Program-made: the position numbers and the translations under genes | Notes under the pieces: generated by a model | The model's database searches: none | The model's input: the letters and a program-made list of their open reading frames with translations, nothing else | Told to the model about the DNA's origin: nothing | Part shown: positions 1,734-16,380 of the stretch, one piece after another | Position numbering within the stretch: the stretch's first letter is position 1 | Layout: each line of letters opens with the position of its first letter | From: Acutalibacteraceae bacterium | Lineage (GTDB): Bacteria; Bacillota; Clostridia; Oscillospirales; Acutalibacteraceae | Assembly (NCBI GenBank): GCA_045643165.1 | Contig: JAZUKF010000065.1 | Location: 1 to 16,393, forward strand | Reading direction: 5' to 3' | Length of the DNA stretch: 16,393 bases

Positions 1734-2444
1734 ATGAGTAAAAAGTCAAAATCTTTATCAGCATTAAAAGCTGCATTTCCCCATACAATTCCGATTTTTG
1801 CGGGCTTTTGGTTTCTCGGACTTGCCTACGGTATATATATGAACGTATCAGGGTTCAGTTTTGTTTATCCCATGATAATGAGTGCCGTCGTTTTCGGCGG
1901 TTCACTTGAATTTCTTATGGTAACAATGCTTCTTTCCCCTTTTGCTCCCGTGCAGACTTTTATTATGGCACTTCTTATTCAGGCAAGACATTTATTTTAC
2001 GGAATTTCAATGCTTGATAAGTATAAAAATGCGGGGAAGAAAAAATGGTATCTTATCTTCGGCATGTGTGATGAATCATTCTCCGTAAACTATACCGCAG
2101 ATATTCCGAAAGATGTTGACAAAGAACTGTTCATGTTCTGGGTTACACTGCTCAATCATTTTTATTGGTTTTCCGGTTCAACATTAGGCGGTCTTTTAGG
2201 CTCCTATATCAAATTCAACACTAACGGAATTGAATTTGTAATGACATCCATGTTTGTGGTAATCTTTATGAATCAATGGGAAAAAGAAAAAAATCATTAT
2301 TCGGGGATTATAGGTCTGCTATGCAGTGCTGTTTGTTTAATAATATTCGGTGCTGATAAATTCATAATACCCGCAATGATAAGTATATCATCTCTTCTGT
2401 TTCTTTTCAGAAAACCGATTGAAAGAGAGGGCGGCTTATCATGA
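1734..2444 (+). CDS. azlC: AzlC-family branched-chain amino acid permease/exporter subunit.
   Basis: 236 aa. N-terminal [26 protein letters not shown] and overall hydrophobic profile match the AzlC family. The 4-nt ATGA overlap with a downstream AzlD-like small membrane protein is the canonical azlCD arrangement. Confidence 0.8.
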
Positions 2445-2770
2445 CATTAACTCAAAGAATTATCACCATTTCTCTCTGTGTTCTTGCAACGGTACTGACA
2501 AGATTTTTACCCTTTATACTGTTCTCCTCCGAAAAACCCGCACCGGAATTTATCCGTTATTTAGGAAAAGTTTTGCCCTGTGCAATATTCGGTATGCTTG
2601 TTATCTACTGTCTTAAAGATGTTAATGTATTAAGGGGAAATCACGGTATTCCCGAGCTTATCGGAATTGCCGTTACGGCAGGACTTCAGAAATGGCAGAA
2701 AAAAACTCTCCTTTCCATTGCCGGCGGAACGGCAGTTTATATGATTTTGATACAATTTGTTTTCAAATAA
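2441..2770 (+). CDS. azlD: AzlD-family branched-chain amino acid transport protein (small membrane subunit).
   Basis: 109 aa, 3-4 TM helices. Start codon overlaps the azlC stop (ATGA). GAGAGGG RBS lies upstream. Size and topology are typical of AzlD. Confidence 0.75.
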
Positions 2771-2785
2771 TTTCGAGGTGGAAAA

Positions 2786-3349
2786 ATGGAAATCAGAAAG
2801 GCATGTACGGAAGATGCAAAGGATATTCTGAAAATCTATTCTCCCTATGTGGAAAATACGGCAGTATCCTTTGAATATGATGTTCCGTCATTAACAGAAT
2901 TTAAAGCACGTATTAAAAATACATTGGAAAAATATCCTTATTATGTGGCGACTGAGCAGGGCAAAATAATCGGCTATGCTTACGCAGGAGCATACAGAAC
3001 AAGAAAAGCATATCAGCACTGTGCCGAAGCATCAATTTATATTGATGAAAAATATCATTTAAAAGGTGTCGGGAAAAAATTATACGAGAAATTGGAAGAA
3101 ACTCTGAAACTTCAGGGTATCACAACCCTTTATGCATGCATCACGTTTTGCGAGAGAAAAAATGATGAATATTTATCTGACGGAAGTATTCATTTCCACG
3201 AAAAAGCTGGATATAAACTTGTGGGGAAATTCAACGGTTGCGGTTACAAATTCAGCAGATGGTACGGTGTAATCTGGATGGAGAAAAAACTTTCGGATGA
3301 TACTTTCCCGGAAAAATTTATACCATTCAGCCACCTTAATTTGCAATAA
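2786..3349 (+). CDS. GNAT-family N-acetyltransferase, phosphinothricin/methionine-sulfoximine acetyltransferase (PAT/YncA)-like.
   Basis: 187 aa. GAGGTGG RBS. Acetyl-CoA binding motif region HLKGVGKKLYEKL. C-terminal GYKLVGKFNGCGYKFSRWYGVIWMEK resembles the PAT-family 'GYKFGRW' signature. Confidence 0.8.
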   Translation: MEIRKACTEDAKDILKIYSPYVENTAVSFEYDVPSLTEFKARIKNTLEKYPYYVATEQGKIIGYAYAGAYRTRKAYQHCAEASIYIDEKYHLKGVGKKLYEKLEETLKLQGITTLYACITFCERKNDEYLSDGSIHFHEKAGYKLVGKFNGCGYKFSRWYGVIWMEKKLSDDTFPEKFIPFSHLNLQ

Positions 3350-3368
3350 ATAAATCCGGAATAAAGAA

Positions 3369-3397
3369 TTGAAAAATTCAAATATAAATGTTATAAT
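3369..3397 (+). promoter_or_regulatory. Sigma-A (sigma-70) type promoter: TTGAAA, 17-nt spacer, TGTTATAAT (extended -10).
   Basis: -35 TTGAAA at 3369-3374. Extended -10 TGtTATAAT at 3389-3397. 17-nt spacer. Located about 45 nt upstream of the SPFH gene start. Confidence 0.55.
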
Positions 3398-3441
3398 CAA
3401 ATAAAAATAAACTTAAAATTTTTTTGAAAGAAGGAATGGTT

Positions 3442-4746
3442 ATGGGACTTATCAAAGCCGGAGCAGGTGCACTTGGCGGAACATTGGCAGACCAATGGAA
3501 AGAATATTTTTATTGCGATTCACTTGCACCTACCGTTCTTATGACAAAAGGTCATAAAAAAACATCATCACGTTCTTCAAATACAAGAGGAAACGATAAC
3601 ATTATTTCCAACGGAAGTGTAATAGCAGTTGCCGACGGACAATGTATGATTATCGTTGAGCAGGGCAAAATCGTTGAGGTTTGTGCCGAGCCGGGAGAAT
3701 TCACCTACGATACCTCTACCGAACCCAGCATTTTTGCAGGTTCTCTCGGAGAAGGTATCAAAGAAACATTTAAAACAATAGGCAAGCGTTTCACCTTCGG
3801 CGGCGATACCGCAAAGGATCAGCGTGTTTACTATTTCAACACAAAGGAACTTATTGATAATAAATTCGGCACACCTAACCCTGTTCCTTTCAGGGTTGTT
3901 GATGCAAATATCGGACTTGATATTGATGTTTCCCTCCGTGCATCGGGTATTTATTCTTATAAAATAGTAAATCCCCTCCTTTTCTACACTAATGTTTGCG
4001 GAAATGTTGAAGATGAATATACAAGAGATACTATTGATACACAGTTAAAAACTGAATTTATAAGTGCCCTTCAACCTGCTTTCGGGAAACTTTCCGATAT
4101 GGGACTTCGTCCCAATCAAATCATTCAGCATAACAAAGAACTTGAAGATGCAATGAATGAAACCCTTTCCGGTAAATGGGAAAACCTCAGAGGATTAAAG
4201 GTTATCACCGTTTCATTGGGAAGCGTAACACTTCCGGAAGAGGATGCGGAACTTATTAAGAAAGCACAGCAAGCCGCAATTTACCGTGATCCCACCATGG
4301 CGGCGGCAACTCTTACAGGTGCTCAGGCGGACGCAATGAGAGCTGCGGCATCAAACTCAAACGGTGCAATGGCAGGATTTATGGGTATGGGTATGGCAAT
4401 GAATGCCGGAAACGCTATGAATACTCAAAATCTCTATGCAATGGGACAGCAAAATAACGCCCCGTCTCCCAAACAGCAACAGGGTTGGAAATGCAGCTGC
4501 GGAAATATCGCAACAGGTAATTTCTGTACGGAATGCGGTTGTAAAAAACCTGAAAATGACGGCTGGACCTGTTCCTGCGGAACTGTAAATAAAGGTAAAT
4601 TCTGTCAGAATTGCGGTGCAAAAAAGCCGGAAGAAGCCCCGTTATATAAGTGTGATAAATGCGGTTGGGAACCGGAAGATCCCCATCATCCTCCGAAATT
4701 CTGTCCCGAATGCGGAGATACATTTGACGAAAACGATATAAAATAA
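3442..4746 (+). CDS. SPFH/band-7 (stomatin/prohibitin/flotillin) domain protein with a C-terminal triple zinc ribbon. COG4260 'virion core protein'-like; B. subtilis YdjI-like.
   Basis: N-terminus MGLIKAGAGALGGTLADQWKEYF is characteristic of the COG4260 family. Central SPFH-like region. A/M/G/N-rich low-complexity linker. Three tandem CxCG-x7-9-FCxxCG zinc-ribbon units at the C-terminus. ATG at 3442 is preferred (AAGGA RBS 6 nt upstream) over the TTG at 3424. Confidence 0.85.
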   Translation: MGLIKAGAGALGGTLADQWKEYFYCDSLAPTVLMTKGHKKTSSRSSNTRGNDNIISNGSVIAVADGQCMIIVEQGKIVEVCAEPGEFTYDTSTEPSIFAGSLGEGIKETFKTIGKRFTFGGDTAKDQRVYYFNTKELIDNKFGTPNPVPFRVVDANIGLDIDVSLRASGIYSYKIVNPLLFYTNVCGNVEDEYTRDTIDTQLKTEFISALQPAFGKLSDMGLRPNQIIQHNKELEDAMNETLSGKWENLRGLKVITVSLGSVTLPEEDAELIKKAQQAAIYRDPTMAAATLTGAQADAMRAAASNSNGAMAGFMGMGMAMNAGNAMNTQNLYAMGQQNNAPSPKQQQGWKCSCGNIATGNFCTECGCKKPENDGWTCSCGTVNKGKFCQNCGAKKPEEAPLYKCDKCGWEPEDPHHPPKFCPECGDTFDENDIK

Positions 4747-4762
4747 TTTTCAGGAGAATGTC

Positions 4763-5947
4763 ATGAGTACTATTATTGAATATAAATGTCCTGCTTGCGG
4801 AGGAACACTTGAATTTGATGTGGCTCTGCAAAAAATGAAATGTCCCTACTGCGATACGGTAACAGACGTTGAGGATTTAATATCAAAAGATGAAGTGCTG
4901 AATGACGGAAACATTGACGTTAATTCTCTTCCCGAAAATGAATTTTCATGGAAAAGCGAAATCGGTAATTCATGGGAAAAAGAAGAAACGGAAAAAATGT
5001 CTGTTTTCATCTGTAAATCCTGCGGCGGTGAAATTGTAGGAGATGAAAATACAGGTGCAACAGAATGTCCTTACTGCGGAAATCAGGTTGTTTTCAGCGA
5101 ACGGTTCGGCGGCGGATTAAAACCGGATTACGTTATCCCATTTAAACTCACCAGGGAACAGGCAAAAGATAACTATAAAAAGCATATTGAAAAAAAATTC
5201 CTTCTTCCCAAATTATTCAAGCAGGAAAATCATATTGATGAAATCAAAGGTATTTACGTTCCTTTCTGGCTTCATTCTTCAAAAGTAAATGCCTTTGCAA
5301 GATTTGATGCGGAAAAAATACGTACATGGAGCGACTCAAACTATGAATATACCGAGGTTACCACATACGATGTTTTCCGTTCGGGAAAGATGAATTTTAA
5401 CAATATACCCGCCGACGGTTCAAGCAAAATGCCTGACGATTTAATGGAATCCGTGGAGCCCTTCGATTTTTCCGAAGCGGTCCCGTTTCAGTCGGCATAT
5501 CTTGCGGGATATTTTGCGGATAAATATGACGTTGACGAAAAAGAAACGGAAGAACGTGTCAATGAAAGGCTTCGCCAAAGCACAATAGATGTTTTACGTG
5601 ATACCGTTGTGGGATATACAAATGTATCAAATTTCGATCCCGGTATTTTCCGTAAAAAAATGAATAAAATGGATGAAACATCCTACGATGATCCCTTTGC
5701 AAATACAAACACCGAGGGAAGCGGAGTCAGTATGACAGAGGGAAATATCAAGTATGCCCTTTATCCCGTTTACCTCCTTTCCTCCACATACAAGGGTGAA
5801 AAATATACCTTTGCCATGAACGGACAAACAGGAAAATTTGTCGGTAATCTTCCCATGGATAAAACAAAAAGAAATATTACCTTTGCAGGATTGTTTGCGG
5901 GATTAACTGCATTGTCAACGGTTCTGTTATGGCTGTTTTCAAGATAA
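4763..5947 (+). CDS. Double zinc-ribbon, C-terminally membrane-anchored protein (B. subtilis YdjG-like).
   Basis: AGGAGA RBS. CPACGG-x17-CPYC near the N-terminus and a second ribbon CKSCGG-x14-CPYCG. Single C-terminal TM helix FAGLFAGLTALSTVLLWLF. Sits immediately downstream of the SPFH gene. Confidence 0.7.
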   Translation: MSTIIEYKCPACGGTLEFDVALQKMKCPYCDTVTDVEDLISKDEVLNDGNIDVNSLPENEFSWKSEIGNSWEKEETEKMSVFICKSCGGEIVGDENTGATECPYCGNQVVFSERFGGGLKPDYVIPFKLTREQAKDNYKKHIEKKFLLPKLFKQENHIDEIKGIYVPFWLHSSKVNAFARFDAEKIRTWSDSNYEYTEVTTYDVFRSGKMNFNNIPADGSSKMPDDLMESVEPFDFSEAVPFQSAYLAGYFADKYDVDEKETEERVNERLRQSTIDVLRDTVVGYTNVSNFDPGIFRKKMNKMDETSYDDPFANTNTEGSGVSMTEGNIKYALYPVYLLSSTYKGEKYTFAMNGQTGKFVGNLPMDKTKRNITFAGLFAGLTALSTVLLWLFSR

Positions 5948-5959
5948 GGAGGAGTTGAC

Positions 5960-6772
5960 ATGAAAAAGGTTTTATCGGTTTTCTTAATAGTTTTTTCCCT
6001 CCTTATTACGGTAAACATTTTTGCATTTGCACAAAACGGTGATAAACCGCTTTTGATTGACAATGCAAATCTTCTTGATGAAACGGAAAAAGAGTCTCTT
6101 GAAAACAGACTTTCGGAAACTGCCGAAGAAGAAAAATTTGATATTGTTATTCTTACAACCACCACCCTTGACGGAAAAGATGCCGAAACATACGCCGATG
6201 ATTATTATGATTATAACGGTTACGGTTACAGCGACACAAATGACGGCTGTATTTTGCTTGTATGCGTAGGTGAACAGAATAAATATCATATTTCCACCAC
6301 GGGAAAAGTAATTGATTTGATAGACAACGGTGAAATCGACTCTATCGGTGAAATGATAGTTCCCTATCTTTCGGACGGAGAATTTTCAGAGGCTTTCAAC
6401 ACCTTTATTGACGAGGTTACTTTCAGTACCGCAGACAGCGGTGATAAATTCTTTTACGGTCTTCCGACAGACAATGCCGAAAAAAACGTCGGCTTTAACT
6501 TGAAACATCTCGGTATCGGAGCGGTAATCGGATTGATAATTGCGTTTGTCGTTATAAAAATTCTCGAAGGTCAGTTGAAATCCGTTTCTCCTAAAGCTTC
6601 CGCAAACGATTATCTTGAAGAAAACAGTCTTGTTATCACCGGCAGATATGACAGATTTGTGGGCAGACATGTTACAAAAACAAAAATTCAGAAAGAAAGC
6701 AGTTCTTCAGGTTCATCAACTCACACCGGTTCTTCAGGCACAAGCCACGGCGGAGGCGGAGGAAGTTTCTGA
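5960..6772 (+). CDS. TPM-domain (TLP18.3/Psb32/MOLO-1, YgcG-like) membrane protein with a Gly/Ser-rich C-terminal tail (B. subtilis YdjH-like).
   Basis: AAGGAGGAG RBS. N-terminal signal peptide/TM. TPM-domain hallmarks (LLIDNANLL...DIVILTT...DGCILLVCVGEQNKYHISTTG). One TM helix (GIGAVIGLIIAFVVIKIL). Tail SSSSGSSTHTGSSGTSHGGGGGSF is typical of this family. Confidence 0.8.
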   Translation: MKKVLSVFLIVFSLLITVNIFAFAQNGDKPLLIDNANLLDETEKESLENRLSETAEEEKFDIVILTTTTLDGKDAETYADDYYDYNGYGYSDTNDGCILLVCVGEQNKYHISTTGKVIDLIDNGEIDSIGEMIVPYLSDGEFSEAFNTFIDEVTFSTADSGDKFFYGLPTDNAEKNVGFNLKHLGIGAVIGLIIAFVVIKILEGQLKSVSPKASANDYLEENSLVITGRYDRFVGRHVTKTKIQKESSSSGSSTHTGSSGTSHGGGGGSF

Positions 6773-6811
6773 TTTCTTCTGATAATTTCAAATATACGAG
6801 GAGTAATAAAA

Positions 6812-8083
6812 ATGAATGTTCCTTCTGCCGTAAAAAAACATACGGATGAATACTATAAAAAAATATCGGAATATAACGGTAAACTTGCCGAACTGTATCG
6901 CAACTGCTATACAAGTACGATTGATACAGCATTGAAAGAAACGGATGACGGTTCGATTTTCGTATTGACCGGTGATATTCCCGCCATGTGGTTGAGAGAT
7001 TCCACCGCACAGGTTTCCCATTATATTCCCTTGGCTGATGACAAAGAAGTTGCTTCAATAATAAAAAAAGTAATCAAACGTCAACTTAAATATATCAATA
7101 TTGACGCTTATGCAAATGCCTTTAATGAAGAAGACAACGATAACGGTCATAAAACAGATATGCCGAAAAAACTACCCTGGGTTTGGGAAAGAAAATATGA
7201 AATAGATTCTCTTTGTTATCCCATGCGGTTGATTTATCTGTATGTTAATAAAACAGGAGACCGCTCGGTACTTGAAAATGATTTTATTCCGGCTGTGGAA
7301 AAAATATTAAATGTTTTTGAAACGGAACAGTATCATTTTGAAAAGTCGGATTATTCGTTTATCAGAATGAGAGAGGGAAAACTCAGAGAACTTCACCCGG
7401 ACGGCAGAGGCTATCCCGTAGAATATACCGGTATGACATGGTCCGGTTTCCGCCCCAGCGATGATGAGTGCGAGTACGGTTACTATATTCCGGGAAATAT
7501 GTTTGCAACGGTTGAACTGAAACATATTATTGAACTTCTCCCTAATGACCGTAAAGATTTAAAAGATCGCTGTGAAAAACTTCGTAAAGAAATAAGAAAC
7601 GGTATTGAAAAATACGGCATTATCGAAAATGAAAAATTCGGAAAAATCTATGCCTGTGAAGTTGACGGACTCGGAAATTACCGTGCTTTTGACGATGCAA
7701 ATGTACCTAATCTCATATCCGCACCTTACCTGGGCTACTGTGATAAAGATGATGAGATTTACAAAAACACAAGAAAATTCATTCTTTCAAAGGAAAATGA
7801 TTATTATTATTGCGGAAAATTTGCAAAGGGTGTAGGAAGTCCTCATACACCGGAAAATTACATCTGGCATATTGCACTTTCCATGCAGGGCTTAACCTCC
7901 GCCAGCAAGGATGAAAAGCGTGAACTTCTTGAAATGTTTATAAATACCGATGCCGGAACAGGTCATATGCACGAGGGATTTTTTGCTGATAATCCGAATG
8001 AATTTACAAGAAAATGGTTTACCTGGTCAGATTCTCTTTTTGCGGAATTTGTTGAAAAATGCGTAAATGACGGAACAATATAA
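6812..8083 (+). CDS. Glycoside hydrolase family 125 (DUF1237) metal-independent exo-alpha-1,6-mannosidase-like protein. No signal peptide.
   Basis: GAGGAG RBS. 423 aa. The GDIPAMWLRDS motif and overall length match the GH125 (alpha/alpha)6-barrel family represented by the Clostridium perfringens and Streptococcus pneumoniae enzymes. Confidence 0.7.
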   Translation: MNVPSAVKKHTDEYYKKISEYNGKLAELYRNCYTSTIDTALKETDDGSIFVLTGDIPAMWLRDSTAQVSHYIPLADDKEVASIIKKVIKRQLKYINIDAYANAFNEEDNDNGHKTDMPKKLPWVWERKYEIDSLCYPMRLIYLYVNKTGDRSVLENDFIPAVEKILNVFETEQYHFEKSDYSFIRMREGKLRELHPDGRGYPVEYTGMTWSGFRPSDDECEYGYYIPGNMFATVELKHIIELLPNDRKDLKDRCEKLRKEIRNGIEKYGIIENEKFGKIYACEVDGLGNYRAFDDANVPNLISAPYLGYCDKDDEIYKNTRKFILSKENDYYYCGKFAKGVGSPHTPENYIWHIALSMQGLTSASKDEKRELLEMFINTDAGTGHMHEGFFADNPNEFTRKWFTWSDSLFAEFVEKCVNDGTI

Positions 8084-8101
8084 TTAAAGAGGAACAATAA
8101 A

Positions 8102-9073
8102 ATGCCTAAAATAAGTGTGATCATCCCCGTTTATAACGGAGAAGATTTTGTGGAAAGATGTTTGAACAGCGTTTTAAAACAAACCTTTTCCGATTATGAA
8201 ATTATAATCGTAAATGACGGAAGTACCGATAACTCCAAAAAAATATGTGAAGAATTTGCATACGAAAACAGTAATATCAGAGTTTTCAATAAAGAAAAGA
8301 ATTGCGGTCATGCCCCTGCAAGAAATACAGGAATTGATTTAGCTTTTGAAAGCGACAGCGAATGGATAACCTTCATTGACTGCGATGACTGGATTGACGA
8401 GCATTTTCTTGAATACCTTTATAATGCCGCAACTGAGAAAAATGTTGATATCAGCCTTTGCGATTTTATAAGGTCTGTTTCAGAAAATGATGTTGATACC
8501 GATATCAGATATGAACCGGTTTTATATTCTCCGGAGGATTTTTGGTGTGAAAACAGGATAACCGCAACAATTCCCTGTGCAAAACTTTTCAAAAAAACAA
8601 TATTCAATTCCGTTCGCTGGCCGAACAGAGTACATGATGATGAATTTCTCACATATAAACTCCTGTTTCAATATAACCAAATCGCAGTATTAAAATCAAA
8701 AATGTATTGCTATTACTATAACGAAAACAGCGTTATGGTTTCCACCTGTTCTCCGAAAAGAATTGACAGTATTTATGCCGTAAAAGAAAGACGTGAATAT
8801 TTCAGAGAAAACAATTTCAAAAAGGCGGCGGAACTTGACGATAAACTTTATCTGCCCGCTTTATATGACTTTGCATTATTCCTTTCAAAAATGAAAAAAG
8901 ACTATAAAAAGCAATACAGATTTCTGTTAAAAGAGTTGAGAAGAGAACTTAGACAAAACGGGGAAAAATACGGATTTACCAAAGAAAAAAATGAATATTT
9001 GTATATTTTCGCTTTCCCCGGTTACAAGGTTAAATATATAATCAAAAAAGGTCTTAATAAAATCTTCAAATAA
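8102..9073 (+). CDS. Family 2 glycosyltransferase (GT-A fold).
   Basis: N-terminal ISVIIPVYNGEDFVERCLNSVLKQTF...IIIVNDGSTDNS and a DxD-like motif (FIDCDDW) are typical of GT2. 323 aa. Confidence 0.85.
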   Translation: MPKISVIIPVYNGEDFVERCLNSVLKQTFSDYEIIIVNDGSTDNSKKICEEFAYENSNIRVFNKEKNCGHAPARNTGIDLAFESDSEWITFIDCDDWIDEHFLEYLYNAATEKNVDISLCDFIRSVSENDVDTDIRYEPVLYSPEDFWCENRITATIPCAKLFKKTIFNSVRWPNRVHDDEFLTYKLLFQYNQIAVLKSKMYCYYYNENSVMVSTCSPKRIDSIYAVKERREYFRENNFKKAAELDDKLYLPALYDFALFLSKMKKDYKKQYRFLLKELRRELRQNGEKYGFTKEKNEYLYIFAFPGYKVKYIIKKGLNKIFK

Positions 9074-9079
9074 CTTTTT

Positions 9080-9119
9080 CGGCAAAAACTCACGAAAAGT
9101 TTTTGCCGTTCTGTTTTAT
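9080..9119 (+). terminator. Rho-independent terminator.
   Basis: Perfect 11-bp stem CGGCAAAAACT / AGTTTTTGCCG with the 7-nt loop cacgaaa, followed by TTCTGTTTT. Confidence 0.7.
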
Positions 9120-9239
9120 AAAAAGAAAATTATGAACAAAAATTACAATAGATTTTATTTATGTTAAAAAAAAATACATACAAATTCGGAAAAATAAGGT
9201 ATAATATATATATCAATGAATTTCAAAGGAGAGATCAAT

Positions 9240-9926
9240 ATGGCAAGTGAGAAAATTCTTATTGTAGACGATGACTTAAACATCTGTGATCTTCTTAAAC
9301 TTTATCTTGAAAAAGAAGGTTTCACAACCGTTATCGCAAACGACGGTCCGAAAGCGATTTCCGCTTTTCAGAACGAACAGCCTGCTTTGACACTTCTGGA
9401 TATAATGCTTCCCGGTATTGACGGCTGGCAGGTTTGCAGAGAAATAAGAAAAATTTCAAATAAACCGATTATAATGCTCACCGCAAAGGGCGAAACCTTT
9501 GATAAAGTTTTAGGACTTGAATTAGGTGCAGACGATTATATCGTCAAGCCTTTCGATGCAAAAGAAGTTGTGGCAAGAATAAAAGCCGTGTTAAGAAGAA
9601 CATCTGCGGCAGCGACAGAACTTATTAAAGAAGTTCAATTCGATAAACTTTCCATAAACCTTACGAACTATGAACTTAAAGTAAACGGTGTTCAGGTTGA
9701 TACTCCGCCGAAAGAGATGGAACTTATCTTCCATCTTGCAAGCAATCCCAACAGAGTTTATACAAGAGATCAGTTGCTCGATGAAGTTTGGGGATTTGAC
9801 TATTACGGAGATTCCAGAACGGTTGATGTTCACGTTAAACGTCTGAGAGAAAAACTTGACGGAGTAAGTGATAAATGGGAACTTAAAACCGTTTGGGGTG
9901 TCGGCTACAAATTTGAAACAAAGTAA
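9240..9926 (+). CDS. OmpR/PhoB-family two-component response regulator (REC plus winged-helix DNA-binding domain).
   Basis: ILIVDDD...LLDIMLPGIDGW receiver motifs with phospho-acceptor Asp. C-terminal trans_reg_C (RVYTRDQLLDEVWG...VDVHVKRLREKL). ATG at 9240 is preferred (AAGGAGAG RBS 8 nt upstream) over 9216. Confidence 0.9.
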   Translation: MASEKILIVDDDLNICDLLKLYLEKEGFTTVIANDGPKAISAFQNEQPALTLLDIMLPGIDGWQVCREIRKISNKPIIMLTAKGETFDKVLGLELGADDYIVKPFDAKEVVARIKAVLRRTSAAATELIKEVQFDKLSINLTNYELKVNGVQVDTPPKEMELIFHLASNPNRVYTRDQLLDEVWGFDYYGDSRTVDVHVKRLREKLDGVSDKWELKTVWGVGYKFETK

Positions 9927-9947: not shown

Positions 9948-11438
9948 ATGTCCGGAAGAAAAAGAATAAAAAGGTCTTCCACTTTCCGAAGATATTTCAT
10001 CAGTATTTTCAGTGCAATTCTTGTTTCGTTCATAATATTAGGCATTTCCATGCTGGCTTTTGTTGCAGGATATTGGCAGCGTGAAACCGTGGAACGTATT
10101 CAATCAAATGTTCAGCATCTTTCACATCTTTCTTCACAGTATTTTGAACTTGAAATTGATGATAAATATCAAAATAATCCTACAATTATGTTGGCGTATT
10201 CTCTTTCCCTTGTTTCTCAATCATTGGGAAGCGGTGCGGATATTTATATCTGCAATCTTAACGGAGATATTATTCTTTGCCGTGATACGCTGAATGTTAT
10301 TTCATCGGGTAATCCTAATCAAATATGTACCGAACATGCCGGTATGAAGGTTCCGTCTTCCGTTATTGAAAATGCGAAAAAGGGTAATTATAAATATGTG
10401 GGAAAAACCGATAAACTTAACAACAGTTTAAATCTTCTTGTGGGTGAGCCGGTAAAGGTCGGCGGTAAAACCATTGCTTTGATTATCTGCACGGAACCTG
10501 TTGAAGAAAATTTAAGTCCCTTTGTAGGTTCAATACTTAAACTGTTTTTGCTGTCCGCATTAGTGGCATTTGTTGTTTCCTTTATAGCGGTGTATATCGT
10601 TACCTATACGATTACAAATCCTTTAAGAAAAATGTCGCAGATTACAAAAAGTTATGCCCGAGGTGATTTCAACGAGCGAATTACCGTTAAAGGTCATAAC
10701 GAACTGACGGAACTTGCGGATGCGTTCAACTCAATGGCACAGTCTCTTTCCGCACTTGAATATTCAAGAAGAAGTTTTGTTGCCAACGTATCCCATGAAT
10801 TAAAAACACCCATGACTTCAATCGGCGGATTTATTGACGGAATACTTGACGGAACTATTCCGCCGGAAAAGGAAGAACATTATCTGAAATTAGTTTCCGG
10901 AGAGGTCAAACGCCTTTCAAGGCTTGTTTCATCCATGCTTAATTTATCGAAAATCGAAGCAGGTGAACTGTCATTAAACCCGAAGGAAATAGACCTTTCG
11001 GAATTGATTTTCAAAACAATGCTATCCTTTGAACAGCAGATAAATAATAAATCCATTGATATTACGGGACTTGATACCATGGATAATAATATAGTCAACG
11101 CTGACGAAGGATTGATTCATCAAGTGGTATATAATCTTATTGATAACGCCGTTAAGTTTACTCCCGAAGGGGGCTACATCAACGTAAGCGTTACGAGAAC
11201 CGATGTAAATACTACCGTTGCCATAAAAAACAGCGGTCAGGGTATTGCACCGGATGAAATCAGAAGAATTTTTGAAAGATTTTATAAGGTGGATAAATCA
11301 CGCAGTCTTGATACAAAAAGTACGGGACTGGGCTTATATATCGTTAAAAGCATTGTTGAAATGCACGGCGGAAGCGTTGAAGCAAACAGTGAAGTCGGTG
11401 AATATACGGAATTTAAATTCACTATTCCTAATTTATAA
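9948..11438 (+). CDS. Sensor histidine kinase with two TM segments flanking an extracytoplasmic sensor domain of about 150 aa, plus HAMP, HisKA and HATPase_c domains (CssS-like architecture).
   Basis: GAGGAAGG RBS. H-box SHELKTPMTSIGGFID. N, G1 and G2 boxes (DNAVKF, GQGI, GLGLYIV). TM1 FISIFSAILVSFIILGISMLAFV and TM2 LFLLSALVAFVVSFIAVYIV. Confidence 0.9.
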   Translation: MSGRKRIKRSSTFRRYFISIFSAILVSFIILGISMLAFVAGYWQRETVERIQSNVQHLSHLSSQYFELEIDDKYQNNPTIMLAYSLSLVSQSLGSGADIYICNLNGDIILCRDTLNVISSGNPNQICTEHAGMKVPSSVIENAKKGNYKYVGKTDKLNNSLNLLVGEPVKVGGKTIALIICTEPVEENLSPFVGSILKLFLLSALVAFVVSFIAVYIVTYTITNPLRKMSQITKSYARGDFNERITVKGHNELTELADAFNSMAQSLSALEYSRRSFVANVSHELKTPMTSIGGFIDGILDGTIPPEKEEHYLKLVSGEVKRLSRLVSSMLNLSKIEAGELSLNPKEIDLSELIFKTMLSFEQQINNKSIDITGLDTMDNNIVNADEGLIHQVVYNLIDNAVKFTPEGGYINVSVTRTDVNTTVAIKNSGQGIAPDEIRRIFERFYKVDKSRSLDTKSTGLGLYIVKSIVEMHGGSVEANSEVGEYTEFKFTIPNL

Positions 11439-11522
11439 AATGTTAAAAACTTTAATATAATTTCTTTAAATAAATATTTTATTATTATTTCAATCATTAC
11501 GATGTGAAAGGAAATGATATAT

Positions 11523-13067
11523 ATGGATGAGTTCAACAACAACCCCTTCAATAACAACCAAAACGATGAAGAGGAAAAAACAAACTCGGATAACGAAAAT
11601 TATCAGGAAAGAAATGAGGAGCCCCGACAAAATCCCGAAAATAATTACGGAAATTCATACGGAAACTCCTATGGAAATTATAACTCACAAAGTTACACTC
11701 CTCCCAACTCAAACCAATATCAAAATAATAATAACGGTAATAATCCCAACAACGGAAATATTTTTCAAAACGGCACATACCGTTACGGAAACACATTTTA
11801 CACTCAGCCTCAACCTGTTAAGAAAAAGAAAAACAAAGGCTTAATTGCATTGATAATCGCCGTCAGTGTTGTTGTGATTTTCTCGGTTGCATTTGCTTTC
11901 GGCTCGTTTCTCTCAGGCAAAAACGTATCCGGCACCGTAGAGGAGCAAAGTCCGGCAGGCGACAATGATACTGTTTTTGAAGCACAAAGCACTCCCAAGG
12001 CATCATCAAACGGCAAGGCACTTTCTTCAACCGATATAGCCAAAGTTGCCAGAGCATCCTCTGTGGGAATTCTTGTTTATTCCGAAAACACCGGATATTA
12101 TCCCGGCTCATCCTCAACGGCAGGTGAAGGAACAGGTATTATCGCAACACGTTCCAAGGATAACAAATATACCTATGTTCTCACCTGTGCCCACGTTATT
12201 TCCTCAAGCGGAATAAAAGTTAAAATTCTTCTTGAAGACGGAACCACATACGATGCGGATATTGTGGGCTATGACGTTCAAACCGATGTGGGAGTTTTGA
12301 GAGTTAAAACAACAAAACTTACCTGTGCAACATTCGGAGAATCCGATGCACTTGAAGTAGGTGAAGAAGTTTATGCCGTAGGAAATCCCGGCGGTTCTGA
12401 ATTTTTCGGTTCCGTAACAAAGGGAATTATTTCCGCAATCGGACGTTCAATCAACAACGATATCGGCTATACCATGGAATGTATTCAGCATGATGCCGCC
12501 ATCAATCCGGGTAACTCCGGCGGTGCATTGCTTAACAATTTAGGACAGGTAATCGGCATTAACTCGTCAAAAATCGCCAGCACAGAATACGAAGGTATGT
12601 CATTCTCCGTTCCGATTAAAACGGCTCTTGAAATCGCTCAAAGTCTTATTAAAACCGGTTATGTTCCCAACAGACCGAAACTCGGTATCTCTTACAGTCT
12701 TGCAACCACCAACGGCACATACGCTATGATAGTTCAAATCAAAGGTCTCCCCTCAGGTTCGCTTATTATCAGAAACATTTCAAGCGACAGCGACCTCAAA
12801 AACAAGGGTGTCCAGGTGGGTGATATTATCACGGCGGTAAACGGCAAAAAACTTGATAAAGCAGATACTCTTCTTGACGTAATCGACAACAGTAAAGTCG
12901 GCACAAAAATCAAATTAAGCATTTGCAGAGTAAACACCGACTACACGCTGAAAGAATTTGACGTAACGGTAAAACTTGTTGAGGATAAAGGCTCAACGGC
13001 GGAAGAAGAAACAACCACCGCCATGAATCCCTTTGATTACTTTGAACAGTACGGTTTCGGTAATTAA
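11523..13067 (+). CDS. htrA: Membrane-anchored HtrA/DegP-family trypsin-like serine protease with a C-terminal PDZ domain and an N/Q/Y-rich low-complexity N-terminal extension.
   Basis: Catalytic triad contexts LTCAHV (His), DVGVLRV (Asp) and GNSGGALLN (Ser). PDZ region GDIITAVNGKKL. Single TM (LIALIIAVSVVVIFSVAFAFG) after about 100 low-complexity residues. ATG at 11523 is preferred (AAAGGAAA RBS 10 nt upstream); an alternative ATG lies at 11514. Confidence 0.85.
   Translation: MDEFNNNPFNNNQNDEEEKTNSDNENYQERNEEPRQNPENNYGNSYGNSYGNYNSQSYTPPNSNQYQNNNNGNNPNNGNIFQNGTYRYGNTFYTQPQPVKKKKNKGLIALIIAVSVVVIFSVAFAFGSFLSGKNVSGTVEEQSPAGDNDTVFEAQSTPKASSNGKALSSTDIAKVARASSVGILVYSENTGYYPGSSSTAGEGTGIIATRSKDNKYTYVLTCAHVISSSGIKVKILLEDGTTYDADIVGYDVQTDVGVLRVKTTKLTCATFGESDALEVGEEVYAVGNPGGSEFFGSVTKGIISAIGRSINNDIGYTMECIQHDAAINPGNSGGALLNNLGQVIGINSSKIASTEYEGMSFSVPIKTALEIAQSLIKTGYVPNRPKLGISYSLATTNGTYAMIVQIKGLPSGSLIIRNISSDSDLKNKGVQVGDIITAVNGKKLDKADTLLDVIDNSKVGTKIKLSICRVNTDYTLKEFDVTVKLVEDKGSTAEEETTTAMNPFDYFEQYGFGN
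11646..11681 (+). repeat. Three tandem 12-nt codon-level repeats encoding (Y-G-N-S/Y)x3 inside the htrA 5' region.
   Basis: TACGGAAATTCA / TACGGAAACTCC / TATGGAAATTAT read directly from the sequence. Embedded in a longer N/Q/Y/G-rich low-complexity coding stretch (11523 to about 11830). Confidence 0.5.
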
Positions 13068-14760: not shown

Positions 14761-14768
14761 ATTTATCG

Positions 14769-14802
14769 GTCAACGAAGTAATTTTTCGTTGACTATTTTT
14801 TT
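14769..14802 (+). terminator. Rho-independent terminator after rbsK.
   Basis: 9-bp stem GTCAACGAA / TTCGTTGAC with the 7-nt loop gtaattt, followed by TATTTTTTT. Confidence 0.65.
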
Positions 14803-14817
14803 ATGTTTTAGTATAAT
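14789..14817 (+). promoter_or_regulatory. Sigma-A type promoter: TTGACT, 17-nt spacer, TATAAT. Its -35 box overlaps the 3' arm of the rbsK terminator.
   Basis: -35 TTGACT at 14789-14794. -10 TATAAT at 14812-14817. 17-nt spacer. About 30 nt upstream of the phosphatase gene ATG. Confidence 0.55.
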
Positions 14818-16279: not shown

Positions 16280-16343
16280 TGATATAACTAAACTAAAGCG
16301 GAACGGTCAAGACCGTTCCCTGCATTTTGATTTCAAAAACTAA

Positions 16344-16380
16344 GGGGCTGTTCGCACTAAGGAACAGCCCCGTTATTTTA
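16344..16380 (+). terminator. Strong rho-independent terminator.
   Basis: Perfect 10-bp GC-rich stem GGGGCTGTTC / GAACAGCCCC with an 8-nt loop, followed by GTTATTTTA. A weaker hairpin lies just upstream at 16300-16319 (GGAACGG...CCGTTCC). Confidence 0.7.

Follow-up and report, generated by a model that had tools for sequence, protein, structure and literature searches.

A conserved SPFH, zinc-ribbon and TPM gene triad with GH125 and GT2 genes as probable read-through passengers in an Acutalibacteraceae bacterium

The window analysed here is the whole stretch of 16,393 nucleotides from contig JAZUKF010000065.1 of an Acutalibacteraceae bacterium. Within it, five genes of the + strand follow one another closely, encoding an SPFH protein, a zinc-ribbon/transmembrane (TM) protein, a TPM protein, a GH125 protein and a GT2 glycosyltransferase, in this order (Table 1). 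Do these genes form one functional unit, or are they only neighbours? The gaps between them are 16, 12, 39 and 18 nt in gene order. A Shine-Dalgarno-like motif, read directly from the sequence, is located 6–9 nt ahead of each gene (GAAGGA, AGGAGA, AAGGAGGAG, GAGGAG and AGAGGAA, respectively). Thus, the ORF coordinates and the motifs agree with the gaps and the separate ribosome-binding sites reported in the first-pass annotation. As a rule, two bacterial genes on the same strand with less than 50 nt between them share a transcript. The window has 16 ORFs, every one on the + strand, so that the common direction of the five genes carries little information. Rfam and tRNA searches of the window gave no match, indicating that no riboswitch or attenuator is present in the block. 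Directly downstream of the block are the genes of an OmpR-type two-component system and of an HtrA-like protease.

Table 1. Coordinates of the genes and predicted signals in the five-gene block
Feature	Position	Strand	Basis
Sigma-70-type promoter-like site, TTGAAA-17 nt-TATAAT with TG extension	3369..3397	+	motif scan 11/12
SPFH/Band_7_1 protein, 434 aa, YdjI-like	3442..4746	+	PF13421 at 5.6e-19
Zinc-ribbon/TM protein, 394 aa, YdjG-like	4763..5947	+	zinc-ribbon matches, TM prediction
TPM-domain membrane protein, 270 aa, YdjH-like	5960..6772	+	PF04536 at 6.6e-28
Wobble-rich weak hairpin across the TPM stop codon	6757..6781	+	centroid fold, shuffles
GH125 exo-alpha-1,6-mannosidase homolog, 423 aa	6812..8083	+	PF06824 at 2e-148
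GT2 glycosyltransferase, 323 aa, generic polysaccharide type, orphan	8102..9073	+	PF00535 at 1.2e-38
Predicted intrinsic terminator, 11-bp stem, 7-nt loop, T-rich tail	9080..9119 (hairpin 9080-9108)	+	folding, shuffles

Judging from the protein sequences, the first three genes are a triad of the YdjI/YdjG/YdjH type. The SPFH protein most likely starts at ATG 3442 (MGLIKAG...) rather than at TTG 3424. According to its translation, three C-terminal CxxC...CxxC zinc ribbons are present within the last 90 residues, and no TM or hydrophobic segment was found; thus, the protein is predicted to be soluble. It is 59–60% identical to the product of the leading triad gene in two related loci (L015 and L102). 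The YdjG-like protein has two N-terminal zinc ribbons (residues 5–32 and 82–110, both below the Pfam cut-offs), a central uncharacterised domain and a single C-terminal TM segment (371–393). The TPM protein has hydrophobic segments at residues 1–27 (signal peptide or TM) and 177–208 (TM), and its Ser/Gly-rich tail ending in GGGGGSF is conserved in the alignment with relatives.

In Bacillus subtilis, YdjI/YdjG/YdjH anchors PspA at stressed membranes (PMC8581546, PMC11237479, PMC9239133), and the ydjG and ydjH mutants show shape defects under stress that resemble those of cell-wall synthesis (PMC8581546). The pspA-ydjGHI operon (PMC8581546, PMC11237479) encodes the same three protein architectures as the window triad, the likeness being one of architecture. 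YdjI is soluble, belongs to the band-7/SPFH proteins and carries zinc ribbons at its C-terminus, YdjG combines two zinc ribbons with an unknown domain and a TM segment (PMC11237479), and YdjH is a membrane protein of the TPM type whose tail is of low complexity. In both cases, linkage between the three genes is tight, and they are kept as a unit across Firmicutes. There are also differences. The gene order is I-G-H in the window, whereas it is G-H-I in B. subtilis, and only in the window do two unrelated carbohydrate-enzyme genes follow the triad without a terminator. The PSP-associated triad is characterised by stress regulation of the sigma-W type and by a mutual dependence of its proteins for localisation at the membrane. 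The promoter-like site of the window triad resembles the sigma-70/sigma-A consensus, and not that of sigma-W as in the B. subtilis operon. Among the 16 ORFs of the window, no PspA/IM30 family match was found; a pspA gene may be present in another part of the genome.

The block is flanked by a near-consensus promoter-like site upstream and a clean terminator downstream, as the first-pass annotation described. The predicted promoter is the top + strand match of the window and is located in the 92-nt gap between the stop of the upstream GNAT gene (3349) and the SPFH start. No terminator was found between the GNAT gene and this site; thus, the transcription unit could start further upstream. The terminator hairpin has a folding energy of -14.6 kcal/mol (z = -4.3; 0/200 shuffles equally stable) and is followed by the tail TTCTGTTTTA. 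Inside the block, the + strand scan gave two minimal terminator-like matches, 6476-6493 (5 bp) and 6751-6771 (7 bp including a G-T pair). Over both strands of the 16.4 kb, 23 such matches were found against 13.2 ± 3.3 expected by chance, and the internal ones are at about chance level. In the energy scan of the block, nothing rivalled the hairpin at 9080-9108 except branched in-gene structures without U-tracts.

One reason to doubt continuous transcription is the hairpin of about -10.6 kcal/mol (centroid) located right at the TPM stop codon. If this hairpin, or Rho, ended most of the triad transcripts, the five genes would be incidental neighbours transcribed separately, and GH125 and/or GT2 would have weak promoters of their own. 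Candidates for such promoters are, for example, TTGATA-17-AAAAAT (6533-6561), GATAAT (6781-6786) and TTGAAA-16-AACAAT (8052-8079); promoter-like matches of 9/12 are present upstream of GH125 and GT2. The hairpin, however, has 11 bp with 4–5 G.U pairs, does not stand out from shuffled sequence (z = -0.28; 78/200 shuffles as good), and is followed by AUAAUUUC, not by a U-tract. Under the hairpin plus T-tail criteria it reaches -5.8 kcal/mol, as against -12 to -28 in relatives. From these features, the hairpin is not convincing as a terminator. The promoter candidates fare no better, because 53 matches of 9/12 were found against 52 ± 7 expected, which is the chance frequency. In addition, a promoter and a leader would hardly fit into gaps of 39 and 18 nt. 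The earlier observation that no terminator interrupts the block therefore holds, with chance-level matches and this marginal hairpin as the only signals. As no terminator-like signal or better-than-chance promoter is present between the units, read-through from 3369 to 9080 is probable, and we infer that a single five-gene transcript is plausible.

In order to see whether the arrangement is kept, loci of relatives were compared. In the module-anchored sample (87 loci of about 36 lineages), GH125 and GT2 were sought by tblastn at E <= 1e-5 within ±10 kb. No GH125 or GT2 homolog was found within 10 kb of the triad in any of the 87 loci; at this threshold a very divergent GT2 could be missed, while GH125 is too conserved to escape. 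The triad itself is conserved as a unit. SPFH-ZnR-TPM is complete in 60/84 module-anchored loci, and ZnR-TPM is present in 21 more, many of them cut by contig ends. The YdjG-like gene adjoins the TPM gene in nearly all of the 87 loci with 47–73% identity, and the same triad is found in L102–L104 (59/53/45% identity).

Downstream of TPM, 32 lineages were assessable. A strong terminator follows in 15 of them and a convergent gene in seven. Thus, the triad normally ends with the TPM gene. The 15 terminated lineages make an ancestral stop at this point plausible, which speaks for separate transcription; set against the hairpin and promoter statistics above, we consider that explanation rather unlikely. 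An unrelated, close co-directional gene follows TPM in nine lineages (DUF6935, unknown secreted proteins or a second SPFH gene), indicating that the module can gain true partners. In the remaining lineage, the co-directional gene is more than 100 nt away.

The other two genes gave a similar result. Neither the triad nor an orthologous GT2 was found near GH125 in the 13 GH125-anchored loci (52–73% identity), and the GH125 neighbours there are varied, including F420-ligase-like, GH2 beta-mannosidase, AraC regulator and GHMP kinase genes. The GH125 search of genome contigs listed at least eight distant loci (52–57% identity), mostly of Paenibacillus, with no close GTDB relative among the matches listed. 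Linkage to the triad or GH125 was seen in 0/4 GT2-anchored loci. A conserved GH125-GT2 pair was considered for L009, where GH125 is 73% identical, and was rejected, since the GT2 there lies in convergent orientation and is practically unrelated to the window GT2 (E = 7e-4 over 86 aa). The other genes of the window (AzlCD, GNAT, RR/HK and HtrA) were also sought in all fetched loci, giving only paralog-level RR/HK matches. Conserved five-gene synteny, for which the first-pass annotation had looked to related genomes, is therefore absent from the loci sampled, all of which belong to distant relatives (GH125 at most 73% identical). The nearest relatives sampled have 73% (GH125), 52% (TPM) and 51% (GT2) identity, and the lineage is sparsely sampled. 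With relatives at these distances, a five-gene order restricted to one genus or family, that of this bacterium, would escape detection.

The absence of the arrangement from the sampled relatives makes a chance neighbourhood likelier than a new functional partnership. We therefore favour, as the probable explanation, that the five genes belong to three units, evolutionarily independent of one another, which are incidental head-to-tail neighbours. The first unit would be the conserved, self-contained triad of a soluble SPFH protein with zinc ribbons, a zinc-ribbon/TM protein and a TPM membrane protein. The second would be a free-standing cytoplasmic GH125, and the third an orphan GT2 of the polysaccharide type. 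The genome is low in GC and of the Clostridia type, and the stretch is + stranded throughout. With neither a terminator nor a better-than-chance promoter between the units, transcription would read through from 3369, or from further upstream, to 9080, and GH125 and GT2 would be carried along as passengers on the triad transcript. We also considered GH125-GT2 as a recently inserted horizontal cassette. This was rejected, because GC3 is even over the block (0.33–0.36) and only short, chance-level repeats flank the two genes.

The GH125 protein matches PF06824 over positions 3–413 of 414. It aligns with the Clostridium perfringens GH125 (CpGH125) structures 2NVP/3QT3/5M7I at 3.3e-148, including the SDD and MHEGF motifs, and with Streptococcus pneumoniae SpGH125 (3QPF) at 6.5e-121. 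According to the structure alignment, RPSDDxCEYGY and MHEGF are conserved at the positions of the catalytic Asp (D220) and Glu (E393) of CpGH125. No signal peptide, TM or hydrophobic segment was detected; thus, the protein is predicted to be cytoplasmic. By homology, it would trim alpha-1,6-linked mannose from imported manno-oligosaccharides. CpGH125 and SpGH125 share with it the full-length homology, the SDD/MHEGF motifs and the lack of a signal peptide, but, unlike the free-standing window GH125, they are encoded in glycan-processing loci, typically with GH38 (PMC5215778). The pairing with GH38 in N-glycan-processing loci is the normal context of the family (PMC5215778), and not a requirement for membership. 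Within the 16 kb window, no GH38, other glycoside hydrolase or sugar transporter was found.

The GT2 protein has a Glycos_transf_2 domain of the GT-A type, in which the translation shows a DxD motif (DCDD in FIDCDDW), and is predicted to be soluble and cytoplasmic. None of the NCBIfam equivalogs reaches its own cut-off against this protein. Its closest homologs (39–51% identity) are located in surface-polysaccharide clusters, which also carry a flippase, other GTs and Kdo-synthesis genes. In Wzx/Wzy-type clusters, such as that of Ruminococcus sp. JL13D9 (L099), the GT2s have the same PF00535 GT-A domain and DxD motif and are 39–41% identical to the window GT2 over the full length. Unlike them, the window GT2 is not accompanied by a gene for a flippase, a polymerase, a priming transferase or sugar nucleotides.

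It was originally proposed that the scaffold module is coupled to glycan or lipoglycan remodelling. Here the five genes would be a true functional operon, in which the stress scaffold is co-regulated with the alpha-mannosidase and GT2 and envelope mannoglycan or lipoglycan is remodelled under stress. The tight spacing between one strong promoter-like site and one clean terminator is consistent with such an operon. The shape defects of the B. subtilis mutants cited above point the same way, as does the envelope-stress flavour of the two-component system and protease next door. The linkage, however, is unconserved from all three anchors (0/87 module, 0/13 GH125 and 0/4 GT2 loci), and GH125 and GT2 are both predicted to be soluble, cytoplasmic proteins. 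Relatives of the GH125 act in catabolism and are encoded in glycan-foraging loci (PMC5215778), the GT2 homologs belong to ordinary polysaccharide clusters, and no paper in the literature searched deals with both GH125 and SPFH. The proposed coupling is thus not supported, and we regard the functional operon as very improbable. An absence of coupling between the triad and GH125/GT2 is suggested by the lack of conserved linkage, which does not prove missing function in this organism. A more specific form, to which we give if anything still less credence, is that in this Clostridia lineage the YdjI/G/H-like scaffold recruited the cytoplasmic alpha-1,6-mannosidase and GT2 into one stress-responsive operon, so that membrane-damage sensing would be coupled to the turnover or resynthesis of an envelope glycolipid or lipoglycan that contains mannose. 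If the coupling were true, an SPFH/TPM membrane-repair scaffold would be tied to glycan metabolism, of which the literature searched holds no earlier description.

With GH125 and GT2 as passengers, the window illustrates that tight, terminator-less gene strings on a strand-biased Firmicute chromosome can mimic functional links that synteny does not support. For the SPFH-ZnR-TPM triad, the comparison confirms a widespread module of gut Clostridia that is self-contained, lacks pspA and usually has its own terminator.

In the best-supported reading of the five-gene block, which we hold to be probable, three independent units lie side by side: a YdjI/G/H-like triad of SPFH, zinc-ribbon/TM (ZnR) and TPM genes, an orphan cytoplasmic GH125 gene and an orphan GT2 gene. 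Transcription would run on by default from the triad into GH125 and GT2; the units are probably co-transcribed, because no terminator separates them. The intergenic gaps are 16, 12, 39 and 18 nt, exactly as in the first-pass annotation, and each gene has its own RBS, a purine-rich Shine-Dalgarno-like motif 6-9 nt before the start. According to the sequence, the SPFH gene most likely starts at ATG 3442 (MGLIKAG...), six bases past GAAGGA, and not at the TTG. The predicted promoter at 3369-3397 (TTGAAA-17-TATAAT with a TG extension) matches the consensus at 11 of 12 positions and is the top + strand match in the window.

Genes of the five-gene block
Gene	Position	Strand	Basis
SPFH (gene 1)	3442-4746 (alternative start 3424)	+	ORF call
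Zinc-ribbon/TM (gene 2)	4763-5947	+	ORF call
TPM (gene 3)	5960-6772	+	ORF call
GH125 (gene 4)	6812-8083	+	ORF call
GT2 (gene 5)	8102-9073	+	ORF call

The terminator claimed after the GT2 gene is real on all measures: at 9080-9108 an 11-bp stem closes a 7-nt loop ahead of a T-rich tail, and the fold (-14.6 kcal/mol; z = -4.3) was equalled in stability by 0 of 200 shuffles. Consensus and energy scans agree that no convincing terminator is located between the promoter at 3369 and this site. On the + strand of the block, the consensus scan gave only two minimal matches, one of 5 bp at 6476-6493 and one of 7 bp, G-T pairs included, at 6751-6771. Both strands of the whole window gave 23 terminator-like matches against 13.2 +/- 3.3 in shuffles; thus, about two per 5.7 kb of one strand is the chance level. 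In the separate energy-based scan, the only structures within the block on a par with 9080-9108 were branched in-gene folds, which lack U-tracts. An 11-bp hairpin at the TPM/GH125 junction (6757-6781; centroid -10.6 kcal/mol) originates mostly from the Gly-codon-rich 3' end of the TPM gene, and similar weak folds are seen at the equivalent place in relatives. If it caused partial termination, and weak internal promoters were active, the neighbourhood would still be incidental but the units would be transcribed separately. We consider this main alternative unlikely. The hairpin holds 4-5 G.U pairs, is followed by AUAAUUUC with no U-tract, and does not exceed shuffled sequence in stability (z = -0.28, with equally good folds in 78 of 200 shuffles), and is therefore not convincing as a terminator. 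Promoter-like matches of 9/12 are present at 6533-6561 and 8052-8079, but their number in the scan is at the chance level (53 found, 52.0 +/- 7.0 expected).

With such short gaps, read-through would be the simplest expectation from what is established about operon spacing. All 16 window ORFs are on the + strand, so the shared direction carries little information, and other junctions in the window are equally short (15, 21, 5 and 28 nt), indicating that tight co-directional spacing is the local norm and not special to these five genes. A terminator-like structure is absent from 3350-3441, between the azlC-azlD-GNAT string (1734-3349) and the promoter; thus, upstream transcripts could also enter the SPFH module. 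Scans of the whole window found no Rfam family or tRNA.

The product of the SPFH gene is soluble, belongs to SPFH/Band_7_1 (PF13421, 5.6e-19) and carries three CxxC zinc ribbons at its C-terminus. The ZnR protein has two N-terminal zinc ribbons (sub-threshold matches, residues 5-32 and 82-110), a middle domain of about 250 residues with no family assigned, and one C-terminal TM. The TPM-domain protein (PF04536, 6.6e-28) begins with a signal or TM segment, carries a second TM and finishes in a Ser/Gly tail whose last residues are GGGGGSF. In B. subtilis pspA-ydjGHI, YdjG and YdjH tether both YdjI and PspA to the membrane (PMC8581546, PMC11237479, PMC9239133). Unlike that operon, the triad has the order I-G-H, its promoter looks housekeeping-type, and the 16 kb contain no PspA-family ORF. 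The triad is thus a pspA-less, I-G-H-ordered case of a described kind, and all five block genes are from known families. The product of gene 4 matches GH125 over its full length (PF06824, 2e-148) and aligns with C. perfringens exo-alpha-1,6-mannosidase structures (3.3e-148), including the SDD and MHEGF motifs; it lacks a signal peptide and any TM and is therefore predicted to be cytoplasmic. Gene 5 encodes a soluble GT2 protein (PF00535, 1.2e-38; DxD motif DCDD), for which no NCBIfam equivalog passes the cut-off.

For synteny, 87 loci were gathered around TPM homologs. Look-ups supplied L012-L015, a single metagenome scan with an alignment of 43 sequences supplied L016-L095, and L102-L104 completed the set. 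Among the first 84, SPFH-ZnR-TPM is present in 60 and ZnR-TPM in 21, many of the latter cut by a contig end; L102-L104 carry the same triad at 59/53/45% identity. Clustering of the TPM proteins at 80% identity gave 35 lineages plus the L102 group, and 32 were assessable for what comes after TPM. A strong hairpin with a T-tail (-12 to -28 kcal/mol) is located at most 150 nt from the TPM stop in 15/32, a convergent gene follows in 7/32, a close co-directional gene without a terminator, as in the window, in 9/32, and a co-directional gene more than 100 nt away in 1/32. By the same criteria the window junction reaches only -5.8 kcal/mol. The triad is thus, as a rule, a closed three-gene unit. The genes trailing it without a terminator vary by lineage: DUF6935 in two lineages, and elsewhere unknown secreted proteins, a second SPFH gene or other genes.

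The first-pass annotation had suggested that, if read-through is real, this membrane-stress module may be coupled to envelope glycan or lipoglycan remodelling through GH125 and GT2. By the refuting condition which that annotation set itself, a lack of synteny in relatives, the suggestion fails in the available sample, in which GH125 relatives reach 73% identity: neither a GH125 nor a window-GT2 homolog was found in flanks of up to 10 kb in any of the 87 module loci, and the triad is absent from all 13 GH125-anchored loci (L001-L011, L100, L101; 52-73%). Furthermore, both enzymes are predicted to be cytoplasmic and soluble, and the GH125 relatives are catabolic. Functional coupling is therefore very improbable. 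The association, which that annotation did not know to have been described, is unreported in the literature searched, yet the linkage appears fortuitous.

The GH125 neighbours vary (an F420-ligase-like gene with a small ORF, GH2 beta-mannosidase, an AraC regulator, GHMP kinase). GH125 characteristically pairs with GH38 in N-glycan-processing loci (PMC5215778); unlike those loci, the window contains no GH38. The nearest homologs of the window GT2 (39-51%) are in classical surface-polysaccharide clusters with other GTs, a Wzx-type flippase and Kdo-synthesis genes. A conserved GH125-GT2 pair in L009, the locus with the closest GH125 (73%), was rejected: its GT2 is convergent and essentially unrelated to that of the window (E = 7e-4, 86 residues). 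Recent cassette insertion is ruled out by the flat GC3 across the block (0.33-0.36) and the absence of flanking repeats. The best matches outside the window are 73% (GH125), 52% (TPM) and 51% (GT2). Sampling of this lineage is very sparse. Each window protein looked up among 5.8 billion protein clusters (~15 billion sequences) occurs a single time, on the 16,393-bp NCBI contig that the window spans in full; those relatives that have names are MAGs of Oscillospiraceae, Ruminococcaceae and Eubacteriales.

Several further features were observed. DUF6935 overlaps or closely trails TPM in two separate lineages (L012:9278-9772, L043:1143-1712 and related loci) and could be a genuine fourth component in some triads; in loci of the L012/L014 type, ZnR-TPM-DUF6935 is present with no adjacent SPFH gene. 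In L057 (258-2109), the SPFH gene comes after TPM; L032, L045, L053, L060 and L079 are also order variants, and in several loci other genes separate ZnR-TPM from an SPFH gene about 4 kb upstream. At the left end of the window (GC 0.29-0.34), the ORFs 3-494 (163 aa) and 537-1673 (378 aa) have no Pfam match. Directly 3' of the block terminator, genes for an OmpR-type response regulator (9216-9926) and a HAMP/HisKA histidine kinase (9948-11438) are followed by one for an HtrA-like trypsin-PDZ protease (11514-13067), a layout resembling CssRS-HtrA secretion/envelope-stress units. Regulator/kinase pairs are also near the triad in a few relatives (L017, L018, L041, L051, L060), at paralog-level identity only. 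For the last ORF, a purple-acid-phosphatase-like gene, the assigned TTG start (14789) falls in the 3' arm of a terminator-like hairpin (14768-14794), and an 11/12 promoter-like site (14789-14817) has its -35 box at the same place; the gene probably begins further downstream. Two successive hairpins rich in G+C, at 16300-16319 and 16344-16371, stand at the contig end and score as terminators whichever strand is read.
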